A stretch of DNA of 13,357 bases, taken from Candidatus Aenigmatarchaeota archaeon (GTDB taxonomy: Archaea > Aenigmatarchaeota > Aenigmatarchaeia > QMZP01 > QMZT01). Positions 1-13,357 of the stretch are shown piece after piece. The stretch spans positions 1-13,357 of the forward strand of contig JBGPQP010000019.1 of the NCBI GenBank assembly GCA_041489155.1, in the 5' to 3' direction. The notes beneath the pieces were generated by a model. The model worked only from the letters and a program-made list of their open reading frames with translations, was not told where the DNA came from and did no database searches. The first letter of the stretch is position 1, and every line of letters begins with the position of its first letter. The translations under genes were made by a program, and so were the position numbers.

Positions 1-2
1 AA

Positions 3-725
3 ATAGGTGTGCAAATTTTGGAAAATCCTATATTTTCACCAGCAAATAGTTTTGCTTTTGTTCCGGATAAAACCACTATTGTAGACGGTGGTGAGAAGAA
101 AGTTGATCTATGTATAGAGAAAAATATAATCGTTGGTAAAGAAATACAATTAGCTCAACAAAATCCAATAAATTGTGCTGGTAAATGGATGCTACCAGAC
201 ACGAAAAATCTTGAAACAAAAATAATTAAAAATATTCTAAAAGAAGAAATTCCAATTAAAGTTAAAGGAACAGGTCATATAGGAGAAAAAGCAACAATAA
301 CTGCAACTTATGAAGGTAAAACAAGCACTTTAAACACAACTGTTGTCCCAGAGCCATCTTTTGGTGGTCCATTTAGAGACATTAGACTATCGGGAAAGGA
401 TACAAAAAAGATTTCTGCTTTTATTGAAGAAGAAGGGATCCTTGAGATATACTACAAGCATTCTTTAATCAAAAAATATATGCGAAAAAACTTTAATAAT
501 AAACTCGATTTTTTAGTATTCGTCGCAGATATTATAACAAGAGAAGCGGTAAAAAGTGCGGTATTATCTGTAATCAAAGAAAGTTCGTCAAGATTTGCTA
601 TATTTAACTTTGACCACCCAGAACCAGAAATTGAAAATTATGTAATCACTGAATATTATGAACAGGGACCAAAAATGCACGAGATGTTCATAAAACTCGC
701 AAGAACATTCAAAATAGAAGAATAA
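3..725 (+). CDS. Hypothetical protein, probably 5'-truncated (C-terminal part of a larger protein, possibly GHKL/HtpG-like ATP-binding protein)
   Basis: The frame is open to the window edge (ATA GGT GTG...) and stops at TAA 723-725. AT-rich codon usage. ILEIYYKHSLIKKY resembles the LEINxxHPLI segment of Hsp90/GHKL C-terminal regions (weak). Confidence 0.7.
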   Translation: MGVQILENPIFSPANSFAFVPDKTTIVDGGEKKVDLCIEKNIIVGKEIQLAQQNPINCAGKWMLPDTKNLETKIIKNILKEEIPIKVKGTGHIGEKATITATYEGKTSTLNTTVVPEPSFGGPFRDIRLSGKDTKKISAFIEEEGILEIYYKHSLIKKYMRKNFNNKLDFLVFVADIITREAVKSAVLSVIKESSSRFAIFNFDHPEPEIENYVITEYYEQGPKMHEMFIKLARTFKIEE

Positions 726-830
726 TCTTAACGGCGGCGGCTTCTAGTTTATCGTCGAAAGAGGTGAGGCTGGCTATTGCGTTGAACAATCATTAAACGA
801 ATTTATTAATCGCCAATCACCTGCACCGGC

Positions 831-883
831 TTTGCCCAATAAGTAGCGTTTGCCTAAAAAGTCGGAATTCTGCCCAAAAAGTC
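831..883 (+). repeat. Three degenerate direct 15-bp repeats (TYTGCCYAAWAAGTM)
   Basis: 831 tttgcccaataagta; 849 tttgcctaaaaagtc; 869 tctgcccaaaaagtc (spacing 18 and 20 bp). Confidence 0.75.
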
Positions 884-941
884 CAATGTTTAAACAAATG
901 TATAAACATAATAATTTAAGCCAAATTTCGAATTCTAAATC

Positions 942-1073
942 ATGAAAGGAACAAATCCCTTCGAAGCCGTAGTAGTGGTAATAGTCGTAATAGTAATTAT
1001 TGCGATTGTTTTTGGCCTTTATTTCCCGCAATTCTGTGCTTCAACAGAAGCTCAAACGTGGCCCTGTAGCTAA
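942..1073 (+). CDS. 43-aa membrane microprotein with a class III (type IV pilin-like) signal peptide
   Basis: Manual translation MKGTNPFEAVVVVIVVIVIIAIVFGLYFPQFCASTEAQTWPCS*: KG| cleavage-like site, Glu at +5, about 20-aa hydrophobic stretch. AT-rich TATA-like elements at 889-920. Absent from the ORF track, probably because it is short. Confidence 0.65.
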   Translation: MKGTNPFEAVVVVIVVIVIIAIVFGLYFPQFCASTEAQTWPCS

Positions 1074-1102
1074 ATCATGCAGGGAAACCGTCCGAGGCTA
1101 AT

Positions 1103-1663
1103 ATGGGTAGGAAAACAACAGGCAAAAAGAAAATTACTGTTTTAGGAATTTCCGAAGAAGTTATTTTAAAGAAACCTAAAAACAAGAACGATTATTACGC
1201 GCAGAAACCTCCACTATCTCGAAATATACAAATGACGGAAAATTTTTTCACTTCGGATTATTTTACAGAAAAGGAAAGAGTGGCTATATTCCTGCACGAA
1301 TATTATCATAAAAATTCGGTCTTTTTAAAAGGAATAACGGTTCTTAACTTCTTGTATATTTCTTCAGCTAGTTCTATTGTAATATACTTTTTTCCTTATA
1401 GTTCTTTTCTTTACAATTTCATTTATATTCTGAGTGTTTTGATTATTGGTTTCATACTATTTTTAGCAATTACTACCCCGTTAAATAGAATAGAGGAGAG
1501 AGGTGCAGACGAATTTTCGGCAAAAAAAATAGATAAAGAAAATTTAATTTCTGCGCTTAAAAAATGTTATGCTATAAACAAGAGAGATGTTTTTTCTGAT
1601 TTTATTTATGATTGTTATCATTATCCAAAGGAAAAAAGATTGAAACATTTATCTTCGTTATAG
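1103..1663 (+). CDS. M48-family (HtpX/Ste24-like) membrane zinc metalloprotease
   Basis: HExxH (AIFLHEYYH), two hydrophobic helices, E-x-x-A-D motif (EERGADEFSA), C-terminal H-x-P-x-x-x-R-like motif (HYPKEKRL). Confidence 0.8.
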   Translation: MGRKTTGKKKITVLGISEEVILKKPKNKNDYYAQKPPLSRNIQMTENFFTSDYFTEKERVAIFLHEYYHKNSVFLKGITVLNFLYISSASSIVIYFFPYSSFLYNFIYILSVLIIGFILFLAITTPLNRIEERGADEFSAKKIDKENLISALKKCYAINKRDVFSDFIYDCYHYPKEKRLKHLSSL

Positions 1664-1692
1664 ATATTATATATTTCAAATGAGGGACAAGG

Positions 1693-2460
1693 ATGAAAAA
1701 CAACAACAATAAAATAAAGCAAGCCGTCCGTAAAAGATACTCGCGCTTCGCCAGAGATGGAACTAGCTGTTGTCCGACCTCGGCTTCTTGCTCTTGCAGT
1801 AACGCTGCCGTCCAAGCGAAGAAGATAGGCTATTCGAAAAAGGAGCTGGGGAAGATACCTAAAGAGGCGGTCATGGGTCTTGGCTGCGGGAATCCGACTG
1901 CGCTGGCCGGGCTTCGGAAGGGCGAGATTGTTCTGGACCTTGGAGCGGGCGCGGGGATCGACGTGTTCCTGGCCGCGGACAAAGTCGGATCGAAAGGCCG
2001 TGTCATAGGGGTTGACATGACGAAGGCGATGGTCGAGAAGGCGAACAGAACGGCGAAGAAGCACGGCTACAAAAACGTCGAATTCAGGCTCGGCGAGATT
2101 GAAAAACTCCCAGTCGAAGACGGCTCTGTCGATGTGATAATAAGCAACTGCGTGATTAATCTCTCCCCAGACAAGCTGCGCACGTACAGGGAAGCCCACA
2201 GGGTGCTGAAGCCGAATGGCAGAATTCTGATTTCTGATTTGGTGACAGAAGGCGAGCTGCCCGAAACAATCAAGAAAAACTTTGACGCCTGGGCGGGCTG
2301 CATAGCCGGCGCGCTGGAGAAAGGGAAATATCTGGACACGATAAAAAAGGCAGGCTTCAGGGACGTGAAAATCGTCTCCCAGAACACATATTCCGAAACC
2401 GGCCAGCATCGTTCGCTGGACGGAAAGATCACAAGCGTGAAAGTGAGCGCGCGCAAATGA
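1693..2460 (+). CDS. arsM: Arsenite S-adenosylmethionine methyltransferase
   Basis: SAM motif VLDLGAGAGID, GVDMT, ArsM cysteines in GLGCGNP, ISNCVINL and AGCIAGA, N-terminal SCC pair. SD-like GAGGG upstream. Confidence 0.93.
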   Translation: MKNNNNKIKQAVRKRYSRFARDGTSCCPTSASCSCSNAAVQAKKIGYSKKELGKIPKEAVMGLGCGNPTALAGLRKGEIVLDLGAGAGIDVFLAADKVGSKGRVIGVDMTKAMVEKANRTAKKHGYKNVEFRLGEIEKLPVEDGSVDVIISNCVINLSPDKLRTYREAHRVLKPNGRILISDLVTEGELPETIKKNFDAWAGCIAGALEKGKYLDTIKKAGFRDVKIVSQNTYSETGQHRSLDGKITSVKVSARK

Positions 2461-2574: not shown

Positions 2575-3072
2575 CTAGTCTACATCTGCACAGACAACGT
2601 AAATCTCCCACGGGTTCTTGCAGCAGGGCTGGCCTTCTTTACGGCAGTGGCATTCCCAGCCGTTTTGAGTGCCTGATAGCGGTCTTGTCCATAGGATGAA
2701 CTCGTTGTTCATGTTTTCGCAGTAGCACCCTCCGCCCAAGACCTTCTTATCATTTGATGAGCAGTAAACTGTCGTCGAGTTAAACACCTTTACTACTTCA
2801 TAGCCTGATAATCCTGTTGGGCCTGCTGGTCCCTGCGGACCCTGAGATCCCGTGACCCCTGTGTCTCCTTTAAGACCTTGCGGCCCTGCCAACCCCTGCG
2901 GACCCTGAGATCCCGTGACCCCTGTGTCTCCTTTAAGACCTTGCGGCCCTGCCAACCCCTGCGGACCTTGAGATCCTGCTTGTTGCACACATCCACTTAT
3001 CAAAACAACTCCAATTACAAGAGCTGCTAAAAGTGCTGGTGCCGGTAAATTTTTCATGTTCATTTTCATCAT
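2575..3072 (-). CDS. Collagen-like surface lipoprotein with an 8-Cys C-terminal domain
   Basis: Hydrophobic signal peptide ending in lipobox ISGC, about 20 uninterrupted Gly-X-Y triplets, C-terminal domain C..VLGGGCYC..GWECHC..CC..YVVC. G-rich SD-like site at 3083-3090. Confidence 0.85.
   Translation of the reverse strand: MMKMNMKNLPAPALLAALVIGVVLISGCVQQAGSQGPQGLAGPQGLKGDTGVTGSQGPQGLAGPQGLKGDTGVTGSQGPQGPAGPTGLSGYEVVKVFNSTTVYCSSNDKKVLGGGCYCENMNNEFILWTRPLSGTQNGWECHCRKEGQPCCKNPWEIYVVCADVD
2831..2976. repeat. 63-bp intragenic tandem repeat, about 2.3 copies (7 collagen triplets per unit)
   Basis: 2831-2893 and 2894-2956 are identical; the partial third copy 2957-2976 has 1 mismatch. Confidence 0.95.
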
Positions 3073-7359: not shown

Positions 7360-9195
7360 ATGGTAATGAACAGCATACGCAACATAGCGAGCCCGGTCGC
7401 GCGGACGTTCGTCCCGGACACTTCCATTCTGATAAACAGGAAGCTTTCCGAGCTCATAGAAAGCGGGAAGCTTGACAACTCGAAGATAGTCATACCGCGC
7501 CTCGTGATTGACGAGCTCCAGGCGCAGGCTTCCAGGGGGAAGGACATCGGTTTTCGCGGGCTTGACGAGATAAAGAAGATACGAGCCGCCTGCGAGAAGC
7601 ACAAGATCAAGCTTTCATTCACTGGCGAGCGTCCGACGCAGGAGGACATAAGCCTCGCGAAGAAGGGACGTTTGGATGCGCTCATCCGCGACTTCGCCGT
7701 CAAGGAGAACGCCACGCTTCTGACCAGCGATTATGTGCAGGCGCTCGTTGGAGAGGCGGAGAACGTCGCCGTGAGCTACATTCCTTATGACATAAGCCAG
7801 AAGACGATAAAGATCGAAGGCTTTTTCACGCCGGACACGCAATCCGTCCACCTGAAAGCGGGGGTAAGGCCTTACGCCAAGAAGGGCAAGCCTGGCGAGG
7901 TCAGGCTCGTCCACCTGCGGGAAAAACTGATGGACGAGGAAGAGCTCAAGGCTATAACGTACGAGATCCTTTCGAAGACCCACCGCGACCCGAGCTCGTT
8001 CATAGAGATAGGCAAGCAGGGAGCGAGCGCGATAGTCGTGCAGATGGGGCGTTACAGAATCGCCATCACCAGGCCGCCGTTTTCCTCGGCGGCTGAAGTC
8101 ACGGCAGTAAGGCCGATCGTAAAGCTCGAACTGAAAGACTACAGGCTGCACAAGGACCTCGAGGAAATGATAGTTTCTGAATCAAAAGGAATCCTCATAG
8201 CAGGCCCGCCCGGCTCGGGCAAGTCAACCTTCGCTGGTAGCGTCGCTGACTTCCTTTCGAAGAAAGGCAAGGTCGTCAAGACCTTCGAGCAACCGAGGGA
8301 TCTCCAGGTCGGCCCGGAGATAACACAATACGCGCCGCTTGAGAACGACTGGGAGAAGACGGCGGAGCTGCTGCTTCTCGTCAGGCCCGATTACACAATT
8401 TTCGACGAGGTGCGCAAGACGAAGGATTTCCGCGTCTTCGCGGACATGCGCCTCGCCGGCGTCGGGATGATAGGCGTCGTGCATGCGACGGACATCATCT
8501 CCGCGATACAGAGGTTCATGGGACGCATCGAACTGGGCATGATCCCTCACGTGGTCGACACGGTGATTTACATAAAGAACGGCGTGGTGGAAAGGATTTA
8601 CACGCTCGGCCTGCTCGTTAAAGTTCCGAGTGGCATGATCGAGGCGGACCTTGCCAGACCCGTCGTTGAAGTGCGCGATTTCGAGACTAAACGCTTAGAA
8701 TACGAGATATACACCTTCGGCGAAGAGAACGTCGTCATTCCAATAAAAGAAGCGCCGAAACCTCTGAGAGACAAGGTCATGAAAATCATACTGAACGAAC
8801 TGGGAACGGTGGACAAGGACCTAGAAGTCGAGTTCCTTTCCGACAGCCGCGTCCTGCTGCGCGTGAGGAACGAGATCATCCCCAAGGTCATCGGCAGGAA
8901 AGGCCAGAACATCGAGGAGCTCGAGAGGAAGACGGGCATAAACATATCGGTCGAGCCGAGGGAAAGGACGCTGAAGGAGGAAATCAAATACCTGTTCGGC
9001 GAAAGGGGCTCGTCCTTCAACATAAAGATCGAGAAGAAATTCGCAGGCAAGCAGATCGATTTATACGACGGTGATGAATATCTCTTCTCGCCCGTGGTGG
9101 GCAGGGAAGGCGAGATCTGGGTCAAGAAGCGCTCAAGCGAGGGAGAAAAAATACTGCGCGCTGCCAGCTCGAGAACGCTGAAAGTGATGGTCTGA
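7360..9195 (+). CDS. PINA: PIN-domain / VirB11-like ATPase / KH-domain protein (archaeal Holliday-junction branch-migration ATPase family)
   Basis: PIN motif VPDTS..IN, Walker A GPPGSGKST, LLLVRPDYTIFDEVR, RLAGVGMIGVVHA, KH motif IPKVIGRKG. Confidence 0.93.
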   Translation: MVMNSIRNIASPVARTFVPDTSILINRKLSELIESGKLDNSKIVIPRLVIDELQAQASRGKDIGFRGLDEIKKIRAACEKHKIKLSFTGERPTQEDISLAKKGRLDALIRDFAVKENATLLTSDYVQALVGEAENVAVSYIPYDISQKTIKIEGFFTPDTQSVHLKAGVRPYAKKGKPGEVRLVHLREKLMDEEELKAITYEILSKTHRDPSSFIEIGKQGASAIVVQMGRYRIAITRPPFSSAAEVTAVRPIVKLELKDYRLHKDLEEMIVSESKGILIAGPPGSGKSTFAGSVADFLSKKGKVVKTFEQPRDLQVGPEITQYAPLENDWEKTAELLLLVRPDYTIFDEVRKTKDFRVFADMRLAGVGMIGVVHATDIISAIQRFMGRIELGMIPHVVDTVIYIKNGVVERIYTLGLLVKVPSGMIEADLARPVVEVRDFETKRLEYEIYTFGEENVVIPIKEAPKPLRDKVMKIILNELGTVDKDLEVEFLSDSRVLLRVRNEIIPKVIGRKGQNIEELERKTGINISVEPRERTLKEEIKYLFGERGSSFNIKIEKKFAGKQIDLYDGDEYLFSPVVGREGEIWVKKRSSEGEKILRAASSRTLKVMV

Positions 9196-9207
9196 ATTTC
9201 GTTCTAG

Positions 9208-10545
9208 CTACATGCCGCCTGCCATGCCGAACTGCTTCGCGAGTTTCGCGAATGGGCCGCGCTTGAAGGCCTTGCCGCCGCCCGCCATCTTGAGCAGCTT
9301 CTTTATCTGCTCGTAGTTCTTGATGAGTTCCCTGACCTCGGCCTGCGTCGTGCCCGAGCCTTTCGCGATTCTCTGGATGCGCGACTGCTTGATTATTTCA
9401 GGGTCCTCGCGCTCCTCTTTCGTCATCGAGCTGATCATGTGCTTCCACTTCTTCATCTTCCCCTCTTGTACGTCGGCGAAGTTTTCCGGCAGCTTCTTCC
9501 TGAGCGCTCCGCCGGAGAAGCCAGGGATCATGTCCATCACCTTCGACATCGAGCCCATCTTCTGCAGCGAGCCGAGCTGCTCGTAGAACTCGTTCATGGT
9601 GAAGCGGCCCTCAATGATTTTTTTCGCTGACTCTTCCGCTCCGGACTCTTTCGCCTTCTCGAGCAGGCCCTGCAGGTCGCCGTAGCCTATTAGCCGCGAG
9701 AAGAAGCGCTGCGGGTCGTATTCCTCGAAGTCACCTATCTTTTCTCCGACGCCGATCATGCGCACGTTCGAGCCGGAAACAGTCGAAGCAGCAAGTGCGC
9801 CGCCTCCTTTCGCCGTCCCGTCGAGCTTGGAAACTATGAGGCCGGTTATGCCGACGAGCTTGTTGAACTCCTCGGCCTGCCTGCGCGCGGCCTGGCCGAT
9901 GTCCGCGGGTATGACGAGGAAGACTTCGCTGGGCCTTATGATCTCGCCGAGCTTCCTCAGCTCCTTCGCGAGCTCGCCGTCTAGCGCGTCTCTTCCCGCG
10001 GTGTCGAATATGAGGACGTTCTCCTTCGCCTCTTTCAGAGCGTGCTTGGCGATGTCTTCGGGCTTATTGCCTTCTGAATAAACAGGGACTTCTATCTGCC
10101 TGCCTATCTGCCTCAGCTGCTCCTGCGCAGCTGCTCGATGAGTGTCGCATGCGATCAGCGCGACTGAGAGGCCGCGCTTCTTGAACCAGAAGCCAAGTTT
10201 GCCGGCGGTCGTAGTCTTGCCCGAGCCGAAAAGGCCGATGAGCAGTATGCGCTGGTCCGCCAGGGAAAGCTTCCCCTTTTCTTTGCCCAGCATGGCGACT
10301 ATCTCGTCATAGAGCGTCTTGATGAAGAATTCCTTGAGCGTCATGCCCTTCGGCGTCTCTTTGAGGACGCGATCCTTTATGTTCTGCGTTATCTTGAAGA
10401 CCAGCTTGACATCTACGTCGGACTGGATGAGTGTGCGCTGCAGGTCGCGGAGTATCGCTTCCACCGCTGCCTTGTCAACCACGCCGAGGCCCATGACCCT
10501 GCGAAATACGTCCTTTATGCCCGAGCCGAATTTATCCAAAGCCAT
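9208..10545 (-). CDS. srp54: Signal recognition particle protein SRP54
   Basis: GSGKTTT, DTHRAAA, DTAGR, KLDGTAKGGG, GVGEKI; Met-rich M domain with SMT.EER..P and SRIQRIAKGSG. Confidence 0.97.
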   Translation of the reverse strand: MALDKFGSGIKDVFRRVMGLGVVDKAAVEAILRDLQRTLIQSDVDVKLVFKITQNIKDRVLKETPKGMTLKEFFIKTLYDEIVAMLGKEKGKLSLADQRILLIGLFGSGKTTTAGKLGFWFKKRGLSVALIACDTHRAAAQEQLRQIGRQIEVPVYSEGNKPEDIAKHALKEAKENVLIFDTAGRDALDGELAKELRKLGEIIRPSEVFLVIPADIGQAARRQAEEFNKLVGITGLIVSKLDGTAKGGGALAASTVSGSNVRMIGVGEKIGDFEEYDPQRFFSRLIGYGDLQGLLEKAKESGAEESAKKIIEGRFTMNEFYEQLGSLQKMGSMSKVMDMIPGFSGGALRKKLPENFADVQEGKMKKWKHMISSMTKEEREDPEIIKQSRIQRIAKGSGTTQAEVRELIKNYEQIKKLLKMAGGGKAFKRGPFAKLAKQFGMAGGM

Positions 10546-10608: not shown

Positions 10609-10645
10609 CAGGCACAGGGAGGCATCTAGGCAGGCCTAGCTAACG

Positions 10646-10662
10646 AAAATAAAAAACAAAAA
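10646..10662 (-). terminator. Oligo-T archaeal terminator downstream of the RDD gene
   Basis: Minus strand TTTTTGTTTTTTATTTT starts about 14 nt after the stop codon. Confidence 0.6.
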
Positions 10663-10675
10663 GCGGAGGGAAGAA

Positions 10676-11131
10676 TCAAGCCCTCACTACAACGGTTTTT
10701 GCAGCAATGTCGCCTATCCTCTGCTTCTTCTCCGAGACCAGCACCACTATGAAGCCGAGCAGGTACACCGCGAGGCCGTCGATCATCCTGAGTATCGTCC
10801 TCAGGAAGGCTTCGGCGAAAGTCAGTTTCTTGCCGTCTTCCCTGACGACCTTTATGTTCACCATCTTCTTGCCGAGCGTTTGTCCAGTCGTGCTCTCGAA
10901 GTATGTGAAGTAAAGGATCCATATCACAAGGCTTATGACTACTAATGTGCTCATCAGGGCCATAACCGAAGCGAGGGTCACAGGATTGGCTACGCTGCCC
11001 ATTATGGAGAAGAGCGCACTGGTCATGCCGAAGGGAAGCGTTATGACCATCGTTATTATCATCAGTATGATGTGGTCTGTTATCACTGCGATAGCCCTGC
11101 TGCCGATACCCGCATAATCCTCTTTTGCCAT
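10676..11131 (-). CDS. RDD-family membrane protein (151 aa)
   Basis: YAGIGSRAIAVITD, GQTLGKK.VNIKVV, LR...R.ID and KQRIGDIAAKTVVV. GGAGGT SD supports the start at 11131 rather than 11293. Confidence 0.92.
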   Translation of the reverse strand: MAKEDYAGIGSRAIAVITDHIILMIITMVITLPFGMTSALFSIMGSVANPVTLASVMALMSTLVVISLVIWILYFTYFESTTGQTLGKKMVNIKVVREDGKKLTFAEAFLRTILRMIDGLAVYLLGFIVVLVSEKKQRIGDIAAKTVVVRA

Positions 11132-11216
11132 ACACCCAACCTCCGTTTTATATTGATTATTATTTTTGAACGGCCGCCTTAAAAACAGCAATATGCCTGG
11201 GTTCATGAAAAATGAG

Positions 11217-11243
11217 AAATAGAAAGAAAACAAAAAACAAAAA
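11217..11243 (-). terminator. Oligo-T archaeal terminator downstream of the SWIB-like gene
   Basis: Minus strand TTTTTGTTTTTTGTTTTCTTTCTATTT about 10 nt after the stop codon. Confidence 0.6.
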
Positions 11244-11253
11244 TCCGTCGCGT

Positions 11254-11409
11254 TTACCTGCCTGCGAGTCTCTTGCTCTTGACAACTACCCACAGTTTCT
11301 TTGTCATCTCGCTTGGCGTTATCTTGCCCTTGCCGAAAACGTCTTCAAGTGTTTCCTTCCTTCCGGCAAAACAAATCGTATAACCACCAAATGCTTTCTT
11401 CGCCGCCAT
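11254..11409 (-). CDS. 51-aa basic protein resembling half of a SWIB/MDM2 domain
   Basis: MAAKKAFGGYTICFAGRKETLEDVFGKGKITPSEMTKKLWVVVKSKRLAGR: L..VFG...I.PSEMTKKLW..VK...L matches the SWIB L..F.G....R.EV.K.LW.YIK...L pattern. SD AGGGGTG, upstream TATA-like elements and its own terminator. Confidence 0.75.
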   Translation of the reverse strand: MAAKKAFGGYTICFAGRKETLEDVFGKGKITPSEMTKKLWVVVKSKRLAGR

Positions 11410-11516: not shown

Positions 11517-11578
11517 TTTGTGTAATAAGTACCGATAAAGGGCGACTTAATACACAGAAAGGGGACTTTTTACACAGA
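11517..11578. repeat. Three copies of a 15-bp motif (one + strand, two - strand) forming an inverted plus 20-bp tandem arrangement
   Basis: 11517(+) tttgtgtaataagta; 11558-11544(-) tctgtgtattaagtc; 11578-11564(-) tctgtgtaaaaagtc. Confidence 0.75.
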
Positions 11579-13225
11579 ATCAACATTGAATTTGCCCACC
11601 GAAAAAACCCCGTTTTTGACCGTCTTGTTTGCCGAGAACGAGGACATATCGTCCGTCAGATACCATCTGAGCTTGTCCTTTCCCAGAGGGAAATAAACTT
11701 CCCTTGCAATTCCTTGCCTTGAGGTAATTATGAACGACAGTTCGGGGAGGGCGCCGAACGGCATCCCTTTGGTTTCAAGGTACTGACTTATCGGAACGCT
11801 GGTATTCGTTTCAGGTTTCATCAGATTGATGCTGCCTTCATTCCTTTCTGAGGACAAGCTCTTCTGGTCAACGACGAACACCTTCTTGTCTCTTATGTCT
11901 TGGAATGTCGGACAGCCCCTTCTCATGGAGCATAGGCTGCATGAAAGCGGGTTGGGCTTCCTGTTCTGGAGATCCTCTGAGTGAAGGATTCCAGTCTTGA
12001 CGCAGAACAGGATGTCGTTGAAGAACGGTTGATTTGTCTTCCTCAGTTGCGCACTGTTCCAAATGAGCCTCTCGAATTTCCCCAGATTGTTTCCTGAGGT
12101 TGGAATCTCCTCCGCCGGGGTCTGGAAGAGCTCCTCGAAGAATGATGTCACCCATGTGTCGACGGGTATACAGTCGTACCTCTTGAACGCCTGCTGGAGG
12201 AAGCATCCAAGAACCTTCGGATAGATGCCGCGGGGAGGGTCTTCGTATATTCCGGCGTAATCTTGGAGGGTCAGTCTGCGGAAGTCGAAACCCTTGAAAA
12301 GATTGTAGAAGTACGTGAGGAAGACGAATGGTCTCTGGTAGTTCCTGTTGAAGTCCTCCTTTATCTGCGTTATCAGCTGGCGTGTCCTTGCGCTGAGGGG
12401 TTCCATCAGCGCGTCCCAAGAACCTTCCTTGTTGGGTATGCCCTTCTCGGCATCCAATAGGTACATGGTCTGCTCCTGAAGTGCGAATTCTTTCGTGAGA
12501 TGCTTGTTGCCGTATTCCATTAGGGCCCTGCGGAAGTTCAGAAAACTCTCGAAATCATCATACCTCCCTGCCAGCAGCTCGTCGTAGGTGGGGAGCAGCC
12601 AAAGATTGATGCATTCGCCTGCAGGGGGGCTGCCCACCCTCTTTCCTATCGTCTGCAGCACGTTGCTGATCATTATGTATTCCTGCTTCCTGCCTCCAGG
12701 CGTGTTCCAAGCCGCAACGAAGCGTACGATTCCGTATAGCTCCGGGTAAAACTGCCCGCACGGGATTTTGGATCCGTAGTATTTTTCAAGCCTCGGAAAA
12801 ATGAGTTCCACTATCCTCTCCCACTTCTTGTGCCTTTCCGACCGGGTCCCGTCGGGAGAGCGGCAGCACTCCTTGAGGCGTTCAAGCGTCATCGCCTCGG
12901 AAAGCCCCAGCCTTTCCCTCATCTCATTTCCGAACAGTTCGTTCAGCCTTGTATTATCTGAAAGGTTGACATTGGAGAGGATGCGAACCCTCAGGGTGCA
13001 CTCCTCTCCGTGTCGCCTCTCGACTGAATGGCTGATTGGTACGCCGAAAACCCTCTGCCCGCCATGGATGAAGTGGATGCTTTTCAGCGGGAAGCCCGGC
13101 AGTTCCGGATCGAAGAAGTCAAGCAGGGAGACCCATCTCAGGGGGAAGCCCGGCATTGATATCTCACACTCATGCCTAAGCGAAAATTCGTCTGCCATCA
13201 TGTACAAAATTAATGTGGACGTCAT
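11570..13225 (-). CDS. Large HhH-GPD superfamily DNA glycosylase-like protein with a putative Fe-S cluster
   Basis: GIYPKVLGCFLQQAF..DCIPVDTWV parallels the OGG1/EndoIII GVGPKVA.C..L.A....PVD motif, with catalytic K and D retained. Cys pattern C-x20-C-x2-C-x5-C. Start may be 13201 or 13198. Confidence 0.65.
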   Translation of the reverse strand: MTSTLILYMMADEFSLRHECEISMPGFPLRWVSLLDFFDPELPGFPLKSIHFIHGGQRVFGVPISHSVERRHGEECTLRVRILSNVNLSDNTRLNELFGNEMRERLGLSEAMTLERLKECCRSPDGTRSERHKKWERIVELIFPRLEKYYGSKIPCGQFYPELYGIVRFVAAWNTPGGRKQEYIMISNVLQTIGKRVGSPPAGECINLWLLPTYDELLAGRYDDFESFLNFRRALMEYGNKHLTKEFALQEQTMYLLDAEKGIPNKEGSWDALMEPLSARTRQLITQIKEDFNRNYQRPFVFLTYFYNLFKGFDFRRLTLQDYAGIYEDPPRGIYPKVLGCFLQQAFKRYDCIPVDTWVTSFFEELFQTPAEEIPTSGNNLGKFERLIWNSAQLRKTNQPFFNDILFCVKTGILHSEDLQNRKPNPLSCSLCSMRRGCPTFQDIRDKKVFVVDQKSLSSERNEGSINLMKPETNTSVPISQYLETKGMPFGALPELSFIITSRQGIAREVYFPLGKDKLRWYLTDDMSSFSANKTVKNGVFSVGKFNVDSV

Positions 13226-13239
13226 TAAAAGGATACATT

Positions 13240-13290
13240 TACCATGGAAATTGAGCTTATATGTGAAAAAACCATGGTATTTTTAAATAC
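13240..13290. promoter_or_regulatory. Divergent promoter region with inverted repeat TACCATGG/CCATGGTA and TATA-like boxes
   Basis: taccatgg 13240-13247 and ccatggta 13272-13279; TTATAT near 13257; GTATTT-tt-AAATAC 13277-13290 containing TTTTTAAA. Confidence 0.45.
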
Positions 13291-13321
13291 GGCTGTCAAT
13301 TTAGACTTGGAGGTCAAAAAT

Positions 13322-13357
13322 ATGAAAAAATACAAAGTAATATCCATAATCAACATG
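13322..13357 (+). CDS. 5' fragment of a probable ParA/Soj-family ATPase (runs off the window)
   Basis: GGAGGT SD upstream. MKKYKVISIINM matches the ParA start M.K.IS..NMKGGVGKTT, but the Walker A itself lies outside the window. Confidence 0.6.
   Translation, partial: MKKYKVISIINM

Follow-up and report, generated by a model that had tools for sequence, protein, structure and literature searches.

A Large Predicted HhH-GPD-Fold Glycosylase From an Aenigmatarchaeota Contig and the Association of Its Family With 5-Methylcytosine Methyltransferase Modules

The window analyzed here is a stretch of 13,357 nucleotides from Candidatus Aenigmatarchaeota archaeon (assembly GCA_041489155.1, contig JBGPQP010000019.1). 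Our subject is a large open reading frame (ORF) within it, termed X, which lies intact on the minus strand at 11570..13225, counts 551 codons from its first ATG and belongs to a rare glycosylase family that carries no annotation. X is an architectural variant of the HhH-GPD glycosylases with a strong and previously unremarked tie to 5-methylcytosine (m5C, also written 5mC) methyltransferase modules, a C5-cytosine methyltransferase gene (PF00145) being found within 4.5 kb of the glycosylase gene at 23 of 25 distinct loci. Our tentative reading, held with slightly less than even confidence, is that X acts as an accessory glycosylase/lyase of m5C restriction-modification modules and clears m5C-linked lesions.

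Cytosine-5 methylation is mutagenic and, to our knowledge, Vsr and the small glycosylase Mig are the only well-known countermeasures dedicated to it that methylase modules carry. Searches of open full text, with subscription literature and REBASE outside their scope, found no paper describing a large glycosylase of OGG1-like type that has a Cys loop and is tied to C5-methylases. If X does repair m5C-linked lesions, it would show what kinds of damage other than T:G are important to cells that methylate their DNA. If its action were instead to cut unmethylated or modified DNA, it would represent a new restriction enzyme class and might serve to map cytosine modifications. Either way, a testable function can be proposed for ~100 "hypothetical protein" clusters in archaea, gut Firmicutes, prophages, and plasmids.

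Family, Fold, and Predicted Chemistry

An ORF of about 545 residues with the motifs GIYPKV, PVDTWV, and C-x20-C-x2-C-x5-C had been noted in a preliminary description of this DNA, and both the ORF and the script-checked motifs are confirmed. The first ATG lies at 13225, however, homologues begin near window Met9/Met10 (13196-13201) and residues 1-9 are modeled with a predicted local distance difference test score (pLDDT) <50, therefore the true protein probably starts at Met9/10 and is ~542 residues long. A word-indexed search of 5.8 billion clusters returned 50 relatives, nearly all of 500-555 residues and none with a recorded Pfam domain, and an exhaustive phmmer search over 1.84 billion representatives gave only 105 matches, 33 of which were below 1e-30. 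The closest homologues (among P0001-P0008) are 77-50% identical to the window protein.

Forty of the 50 relatives were aligned, the ten that were omitted being mostly shorter or partial, and 36 columns of this alignment are invariant. Among them are K337 in the hairpin-Lys motif RGIYPKV (codon 12215-12217), D356 in the catalytic-Asp motif PVDTWV (codon 12158-12160), and the cysteines of the loop C408-x20-C429-x2-C432-x5-C438 (11912..12004), all on the minus strand, together with an LQQ triplet past K337 and D525 and S528 in the C-terminal part. Since all six Lys, Asp, and Cys residues are invariant across the 40 homologues, these motifs are not products of chance. The first Cys interval varies within the family from x18 to x22, with x20 in the window and x18 in P0025.

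Membership of the HhH-GPD group is given by fold and motif, not by a curated sequence model. At E<=1 the window protein has only a chance Pfam match to GalP_UDP_transf, with no PF00730, OGG_N, or PF10576, and no NCBIfam match, TIGR00588 (ogg) included. PF00730 does match two other genes of the same genome bin. None of the PADLOC models matches the protein, while the ESM Atlas returned unnamed clusters only, none of them reaching 0.9 and none for the C-terminal part. Similarity to PDB sequences is limited to 40 residues around the Lys...Asp motif, where all matches are Ogg enzymes (E 0.011-0.037 with a single sequence, 0.0028 with a profile). Here K337 pairs with the Lys of GVGPKV in CacOgg, a position that is Gln in 3i0w/3i0x, and the Asp of the CacOgg PVDTWV is matched by D356, the Lys...Asp spacing of 19 residues being common to both. 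We take the CacOgg Lys to be the Schiff-base nucleophile and the Gln forms 3i0w/3i0x to be trapping mutants. Given this alignment and the Gln that replaces the Lys in DNA-trapping variants, we infer from sequence that K337 would form a Schiff base and that D356 would activate it.

An AlphaFold model built on the 40-sequence alignment reached a pLDDT of 93.5 and a predicted template modeling score (pTM) of 0.90. Foldseek found 90 PDB matches at E<=1e-3 with OGG enzymes leading, the top being CacOgg and human and mouse OGG1 (E 5e-6 to 1e-4, ~400 columns). VIA-align, a structural aligner independent of Foldseek, placed OGG1 (8vx4) at Z 14.8 (262 aligned, root-mean-square deviation 3.8, model residues 20-395), Archaeoglobus fulgidus AlkA at Z 14.5, CacOgg at Z 14.4, and Escherichia coli AlkA at Z 12.8, followed by Mag1, DrAlkA, and MagIII at Z ~9 each. 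NTHL1, EndoIII, MutY, ROS1, and Mig scored Z 6.5-7.9 in alignments which reach residues 420-446, across the Cys loop. In all, 18 chains stood at Z>=5, almost all of them HhH-GPD glycosylases. The OGG1, CacOgg, and two AlkA alignments begin at model residues 16-20 and span the beta strands of residues 18-84.

The window protein is predicted from this model to be an HhH-GPD-fold enzyme with an OGG1/AlkA-type two-domain body over residues 20-400. The N-terminal beta-sheet domain (residues ~18-84, 12974..13174, minus strand; model strands E18-28 and E50-84) is the equivalent of the OGG1/AlkA N-domain, and the helical HhH-GPD core with its insertions follows (residues ~92-400, 12026..12952, minus strand), both RGIYPKV and PVDTWV lying inside it. 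As modeled, the N-terminal ~300 residues are this beta domain plus an HhH-GPD core carrying ~110 residues of insertions. The earlier view of more than 300 unassigned N-terminal residues thus stands at the level of sequence, where Pfam and NCBIfam give no match, but not at the level of fold. The Cys loop occupies the cluster position of the EndoIII clade, its C-x2-C-x5-C tail being canonical and its first interval expanded, and it would be expected from the model to bind a [4Fe-4S] cluster. We know of no characterized enzyme that combines an OGG1/AlkA body with a four-Cys loop. A structure check with AlphaFold and Foldseek against HhH-GPD structures had been suggested in the preliminary description, and the predicted structure has the HhH-GPD fold. 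The putative bifunctional HhH-GPD glycosylase/lyase with a Lys/Asp pair and a four-Cys loop that it described is supported by AlphaFold, Foldseek, VIA-align, and the invariant residues.

The C-terminal extension of about 110 residues, also described earlier, is present and folds as a domain of its own: in the model the last ~105-110 residues form a separate beta domain (residues 447-551, 11573..11887, minus strand) that includes the invariant D525 and S528. Modeled alone (residues 440-551, 29-sequence alignment), it reached a pLDDT of 82.8. Foldseek gave nothing for this domain at E<=1e-3, and its best match, ribosomal protein L25/TL5 (E 0.025, template modeling score ~0.3), was judged meaningless. 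VIA-align scored no higher than Z 4.1, short of its own noise guide, yet PUA-like base readers make up ~19 of the 32 leading rows, with scores at or below that value. These weak rows include YTH, EVE, ASCH, and an archaeal McrB N-domain, with THYN1 bound to 5mC DNA at Z 3.2, the EVE-HNH enzyme VcaM4I at Z 3.3, and a 5-hydroxymethylcytosine (5hmC)-specific enzyme at Z 2.6. The EVE, YTH, and ASCH Pfam families match 0 of 29 family members. A possible kinship of the C-terminal domain to EVE/YTH/ASCH modified-base readers is a lead only.

Methyltransferase Neighborhood

The 25 distinct loci comprise 17 from genomes, seven from viruses, and one from a plasmid, and several are related mobile elements. 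ORFs were called by a longest-ORF rule and scanned at all positions up to 4.5 kb from the gene in the 17 genome loci (143 ORFs), while in the viral loci the scan covered 42 of 74 listed ORFs, without the duplicate loci L030 and L034 and without a number of distal ORFs. The C5-cytosine methyltransferase is found at 16/17 genome loci, at 6/7 distinct viral loci, and on the plasmid. The two loci that lack it, L005 and L031, end 101 bp and 12 bp past the glycosylase gene. The idea of a modified-base module, put forward in the preliminary description, gains from this context, as relatives of X sit in m5C restriction-modification neighborhoods.

Other genes recur in these loci. An endonuclease of LlaMI/MvaI-BcnI type, either free or fused to the methylase, is encoded at 18 of the 25. 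Vsr is present at five (L004, L005, L006, L015, and L035), and a small Mig/MutY-like glycosylase, which matches the PADLOC "type II nicking endonuclease" model, is present at two (L002 and L003). An AlkA-like glycosylase occurs at L007 and on the plasmid, NUDIX genes at three loci, and a MazG-like protein at one. The NUDIX or MazG-like genes adjoin the glycosylase or its operon (L012 5623-6084, L028 6651-7106, L032 7532-7987, and L007 7449-7832), and their products may sanitize modified dCTP pools. GmrSD, McrB-like, ABC-3C, and TOTE genes lie near some loci, as in defense-type islands.

The partner methylases fall mostly into two SsoII/ScrFI-like groups, which, judging from Pfam restriction-family names, would imply CCNGG specificity. 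Those of L004 and L006 share 56-57% identity with the methylase portion of a protein in which methylase and LlaMI are fused. Such fusion ORFs (623-637 residues) adjoin the glycosylase gene in L011 (6067-7980), L012 (6089-7984), L017 (2011-3882), and L027 (6062-7972). Many LlaMI-type clusters are also accompanied by a conserved protein of 155-158 residues (L009 789-1256, L013 5095-5562, L008 10402-10869, and viral L027-L033), which matches only the PADLOC candidate PDC-M11B (E 1e-8 to 1e-12). This protein was considered as a hidden Vsr and rejected, since it has no Pfam match at E<=1 and none in NCBIfam.

Lesion Repair and Competing Readings

Under our tentative reading, X would be a Lys/Asp glycosylase-apurinic/apyrimidinic (AP) lyase with a predicted four-Cys iron-sulfur loop, an accessory base-excision enzyme in the service of m5C restriction-modification modules. 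Its target would be an m5C-linked lesion opposite G, m5C-derived rather than 8-oxoguanine (8-oxoG): either thymine or a product of oxidation or deamination, for example 5-hydroxymethyluracil or thymine glycol. By analogy to the reader domain of MBD4, the C-terminal domain may help to locate methylated sites. Lesion repair is favored because the glycosylase gene travels with the methylase, because a true endonuclease is usually already in the locus, and because the other add-on genes (Vsr, Mig, AlkA-like, NUDIX, MazG) are for damage control. As the Lys is conserved and Vsr or Mig is present at seven loci, an oxidized or deaminated m5C product, or a methylase side-product, seems a more likely substrate than simple T:G. 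For the same reasons X was rejected as a plain Vsr substitute. The window copy sits alone in a variable insertion, beside a truncated and possibly ParA-like gene, and its methyltransferase partner, if any, would be encoded beyond the contig end.

Several points weigh against lesion repair. The 25 loci are not independent, several being related mobile elements, and the known context within the window's own archaeal clade amounts to two loci, L002 and L003. The window's genome bin, 89.65% complete, yielded neither a PF00145 methyltransferase nor Vsr on search. Vsr or a Mig-like gene, each dedicated to T:G repair, is in place at 7 of the 25 loci, which would make a plain T:G role redundant there. 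The similarity of the C-terminal domain to readers does not exceed Z 4.1 and finds no match in Pfam. Furthermore, the glycosylase gene is co-transcribed with or overlaps restriction genes at several loci, which also fits restriction. Every T:G glycosylase known to us (Mig, MBD4, TDG, MUG) is monofunctional, whereas this family keeps the Lys. A Y126K change turns Mig from glycosylase to lyase activity, as stated in the accessible part of one report (PMC9945173).

Set against lesion repair is the possibility that X provides a second, independent base-excision arm of restriction-modification, either by restricting DNA without the m5C mark or by excising 5mC in a DEMETER-like manner with its own reader domain. 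This is unlikely in our estimation. In its first form X would be a methylation-inhibited restriction glycosylase/lyase that excises an unmethylated base at the methyltransferase site and nicks by beta-elimination, an HhH-GPD counterpart of PabI (HALFPIPE). The near-constant adjacency of the C5-methyltransferase agrees with this, as does the conserved Lys, which predicts strand cleavage. L004, L006, L015, and L035 have Vsr, X, and methyltransferase in a V-R-M layout, X converging on or overlapping the methyltransferase gene, and the Methanobrevibacter copy (L015) is disrupted beside an intact methyltransferase, as is often seen with restriction genes. Base-excision restriction enzymes also have precedent, although in the PabI family only, and a term search in the text of a 2023 review found no mention of HhH, OGG, or endonuclease III (PMC10273834). 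However, a bona fide LlaMI/MvaI-type endonuclease is already in the same operon at 18/25 loci, and the PD-(D/E)XK nucleases of L004 and L006 could be the R gene there. The NUDIX, MazG, and AlkA-like neighbors better fit housekeeping, and the gene is intact in the window's genome bin even though no methyltransferase is seen there. On balance we regard a restriction glycosylase as distinctly unlikely.

The second form belongs to a broader rival in which excision would be directed by modification, X being a DEMETER/ROS1-like 5mC eraser or a type-IV-like glycosylase against foreign modified-cytosine DNA, with the C-terminal domain as the reader. The Lys/Asp pair and four-Cys loop are as in DEMETER/ROS1 (ROS1 7yho, Z 7.1), the top weak matches of the C-terminal domain are mostly EVE/YTH/ASCH readers, and some loci lie in the defense-type islands described above. 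END nucleases, moreover, have HhH-fold sensors of hypermodified phage DNA according to one study, however, by the same account these sensors are without catalytic residues and are not linked to methyltransferases, unlike the X family (PMC12191111). ROS1 is no closer to X than EndoIII, MutY, or NTHL1 (Z 6.9-7.9), the reader similarity falls short of the aligner noise guide and is not backed by sequence, PADLOC offers no matching model, and removal of the adjacent methyltransferase's own mark would be self-damaging. We hold this rival to be a shade less probable again than restriction. Direct action on modified viral DNA, as initially suggested for the window protein, is possible but is not the best reading. 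The family is constantly paired with an m5C methyltransferase of the host, frequently in the company of Vsr, Mig, NUDIX, or MazG, and this suggests damage control.

Distribution and Horizontal Movement

The gene is rare and scattered. A scan of one genome per GTDB species with a single peptide pattern, which must undercount, found 17 glycosylase loci. The archaeal ones belong to Methanophagales, Haloarchaeobius, two DPANN-like archaea, and Methanobrevibacter, and the bacterial ones to Bacillaceae, Streptococcus, Clostridia, Bacteroidales, a spirochaete, and an alphaproteobacterium. IMG/VR holds nine loci, of which two (L030 and L034) are identical to genome loci, leaving seven distinct, and PLSDB holds one Bacillus plasmid copy annotated as hypothetical. 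The gene was found in 0/50,697 phage records, in 0/90 other genomes of the window's own order, and in 1/401 genomes of the class around the Haloarchaeobius genome (G092), with 0/400 in the further genomes.

In a tree of 25 copies, from which the broken L015 copy and two duplicate loci were left out, the window copy groups with the Methanophagales and Haloarchaeobius copies (support 100/100), and two DPANN-like archaeal copies are nested in a bacterial clade beside the Bacillaceae copies. Two genomes of the window's genus keep the run from HisRS to SRP54 and a 64-codon gene, followed by eIF2-alpha, ribosomal-protein, RpoE, and V-ATPase genes, and both the glycosylase ORF and an RDD gene are absent from this syntenic site. 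The latter encodes an RDD-family membrane protein (PF06271, E 3e-27; window 10626-11293, minus strand) and lies between SRP54 and the 64-codon gene. As it is missing at that position in the two same-genus genomes, it is a second small insertion adjoining the glycosylase gene.

Patchy distribution, syntenic absence, nesting in the tree, and the presence of two ordinary HhH-GPD genes elsewhere in the genome bin together mark X as an accessory gene that moves laterally, outside the core repair set. The proposals that it is not a housekeeping repair enzyme and that its location is accessory are both borne out, the former by the two ordinary genes and the latter by the patchiness and by absence from the syntenic site.

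The same observations bear on the plainest account of X, an ordinary OGG/Nth oxidative-damage enzyme for 8-oxoG or oxidized pyrimidines that rides mobile elements with no tie to methylation. Ogg enzymes are its sole sequence-level similarity, and OGG1 and CacOgg are its best structural matches. Nonetheless, adjacency to a C5-methyltransferase at 23/25 loci holds over several operon architectures and in both domains of life, the family is extremely rare and patchy, and the genome already has two standard HhH-GPD genes. We therefore consider an ordinary oxidative-damage role quite improbable.

One copy appears to have moved recently. In L015, a metagenome-assembled genome of Methanobrevibacter, the glycosylase copy (7998-9540) is 63% identical to the Oscillospiraceae copy. 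Its frame is interrupted twice, over codons 193-245, which are out of frame and contain six stops, and by a frameshift close to codon 467. The C5-methylase beside it is undamaged, with 79-81% identity to Firmicute methylases. Barring assembly errors, this suggests a recent transfer from bacteria to an archaeon followed by decay.

Divergent Gene and Contig Context

The window is an entire contig of a 39-contig, 1.13-Mb genome bin, and this contig stops 132 bp upstream of the glycosylase gene. A divergent intergenic region of 96 bp (13226..13321, no strand) separates the ATG at 13225 from the next ORF, which is preceded by GGAGGT at 13309-13314 and starts with MKKYKVISIINM (13322-13357, plus strand). 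The contig includes no more than these 12 codons, and any Walker A box would fall beyond its end. The divergent spacer of about 100 bp noted earlier is thus real, while the ParA-like label attached to this ORF can be called compatible at most, as 12 residues resembling a ParA/Soj N-terminus are all that the contig offers.

It had further been proposed that the glycosylase and the divergent ParA-like gene form a two-gene defense or epigenetic module. The start 96 bp away and the fit of its 12 residues to ParA/Soj agree with this, but the suggested neighborhood check told against a conserved ParA partner: an ORF with KGGxGK[ST] (deviant Walker A) in any frame was found at 0/25 distinct homologous loci, with a flank of up to 8 kb each, and Pfam ParA/CbiA was absent among the 143 + 42 scanned neighbor ORFs. 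ParA is common on plasmids and integrated elements and may merely mark the element. We judge a ParA module highly improbable. Other contig ends of the bin gave no k-mer overlap and no Walker-A ORF, a metagenome scan for an extension of the contig found a single weak and irrelevant locus (L019, 23% identity over 163 residues), and no tRNA was found in the window as an integration mark.

The remaining neighbors in the window include archaeal-type core genes, namely HisRS, a PIN-KH ATPase, and SRP54. The second of these is a 611-residue protein at 7360-9195 (plus strand) with PIN, T2SSE-like ATPase, and KH domains, and is kept in the same-genus genomes. At the opposite contig end, window 1-2000 has a G+C of 33-39% against 50-58% elsewhere, and ORFs 3-725 and 1103-1663 have no Pfam match; this may be another foreign or fast-evolving stretch. 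A 165-residue ORF at 2575-3072 (minus strand) matches the collagen triple-helix repeat (E 3e-10) and may either encode a genuine Gly-X-Y repeat protein or owe the match to its composition.

Comparison With Known Systems

OGG1 and CacOgg share the body plan of X (Z 14.4-14.8), with an N-terminal beta domain, an HhH-GPD core, and PKV...PVDTW at a spacing of 19 residues. X differs by insertions totaling ~110 residues, by a four-Cys loop that is invariant, and by a further domain at the C terminus. It does not match TIGR00588 and is tied to an m5C methyltransferase context instead of being a core gene. OGG1 is not known to carry an Fe-S cluster. AlkA (E. coli 3ogd, A. fulgidus 2jhj) shares the N-domain and HhH-GPD fold (Z 12.8-14.5), but it lacks both the Cys loop and the C-terminal domain and is monofunctional, with no catalytic Lys known. 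The combination of an OGG1/AlkA two-domain body, an EndoIII-like Cys loop, and an extra domain is absent among the characterized glycosylases matched.

From the EndoIII/MutY/Mig.MthI clade come the Cys cluster that ends the HhH-GPD core and its C-x2-C-x5-C tail. The loop in this clade is C-x6-C-x2-C-x5-C, compared with a first interval of x18-x22 and no PF10576 match in the X family, and these enzymes are not known to have the OGG1/AlkA-type N-domain of X. Within the clade, Mig is the known HhH-GPD glycosylase that serves an m5C restriction-modification system through T:G repair, and its structure 1kea is entitled a thermostable thymine-DNA glycosylase. It has a Tyr where X has the Lys (PMC9945173). 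X is more than twice the size of the EndoIII/MutY/Mig enzymes. MBD4 resembles X in joining a glycosylase core to a separate domain possibly reading methylated DNA, although the core match is weak (Z 4.5-4.7), X does not have an MBD as its extra domain, and MBD4 is not known to have either the Lys or the Cys loop.

DEMETER/ROS1 are likewise enlarged HhH-GPD proteins with Lys/Asp and a Fe-S cluster, which in X is predicted, and differ in that X has an OGG1/AlkA N-domain. The glycosylase domain of ROS1 is described as discontinuous (PMC3045615). PabI demonstrates that base excision with AP-lyase activity can work as the restriction arm of a restriction-modification system (PMC4357717, PMC10273834), with its enzymes placed in the HALFPIPE superfamily and not HhH-GPD (PMC7806768). 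PabI-family chains are absent among the listed Foldseek and VIA-align matches of the X model. END nucleases do bring EndoIII/OGG-like domains into defense, however, these sensors are catalytically dead, fused to a PLD nuclease, and not methylase-linked (PMC12191111). X was rejected as a member of that group, given that END sensors lack catalytic residues and carry the PLD nuclease.

Vsr parallels X in terms of niche, being an accessory repair gene carried with C5-cytosine methyltransferases, but it is an endonuclease of unrelated fold and chemistry, and X is probably no simple substitute for it because the two co-occur at five loci. If m5C-lesion repair is indeed its role, the X family would stand beside Vsr and Mig as a third, far larger, and differently built enzyme.

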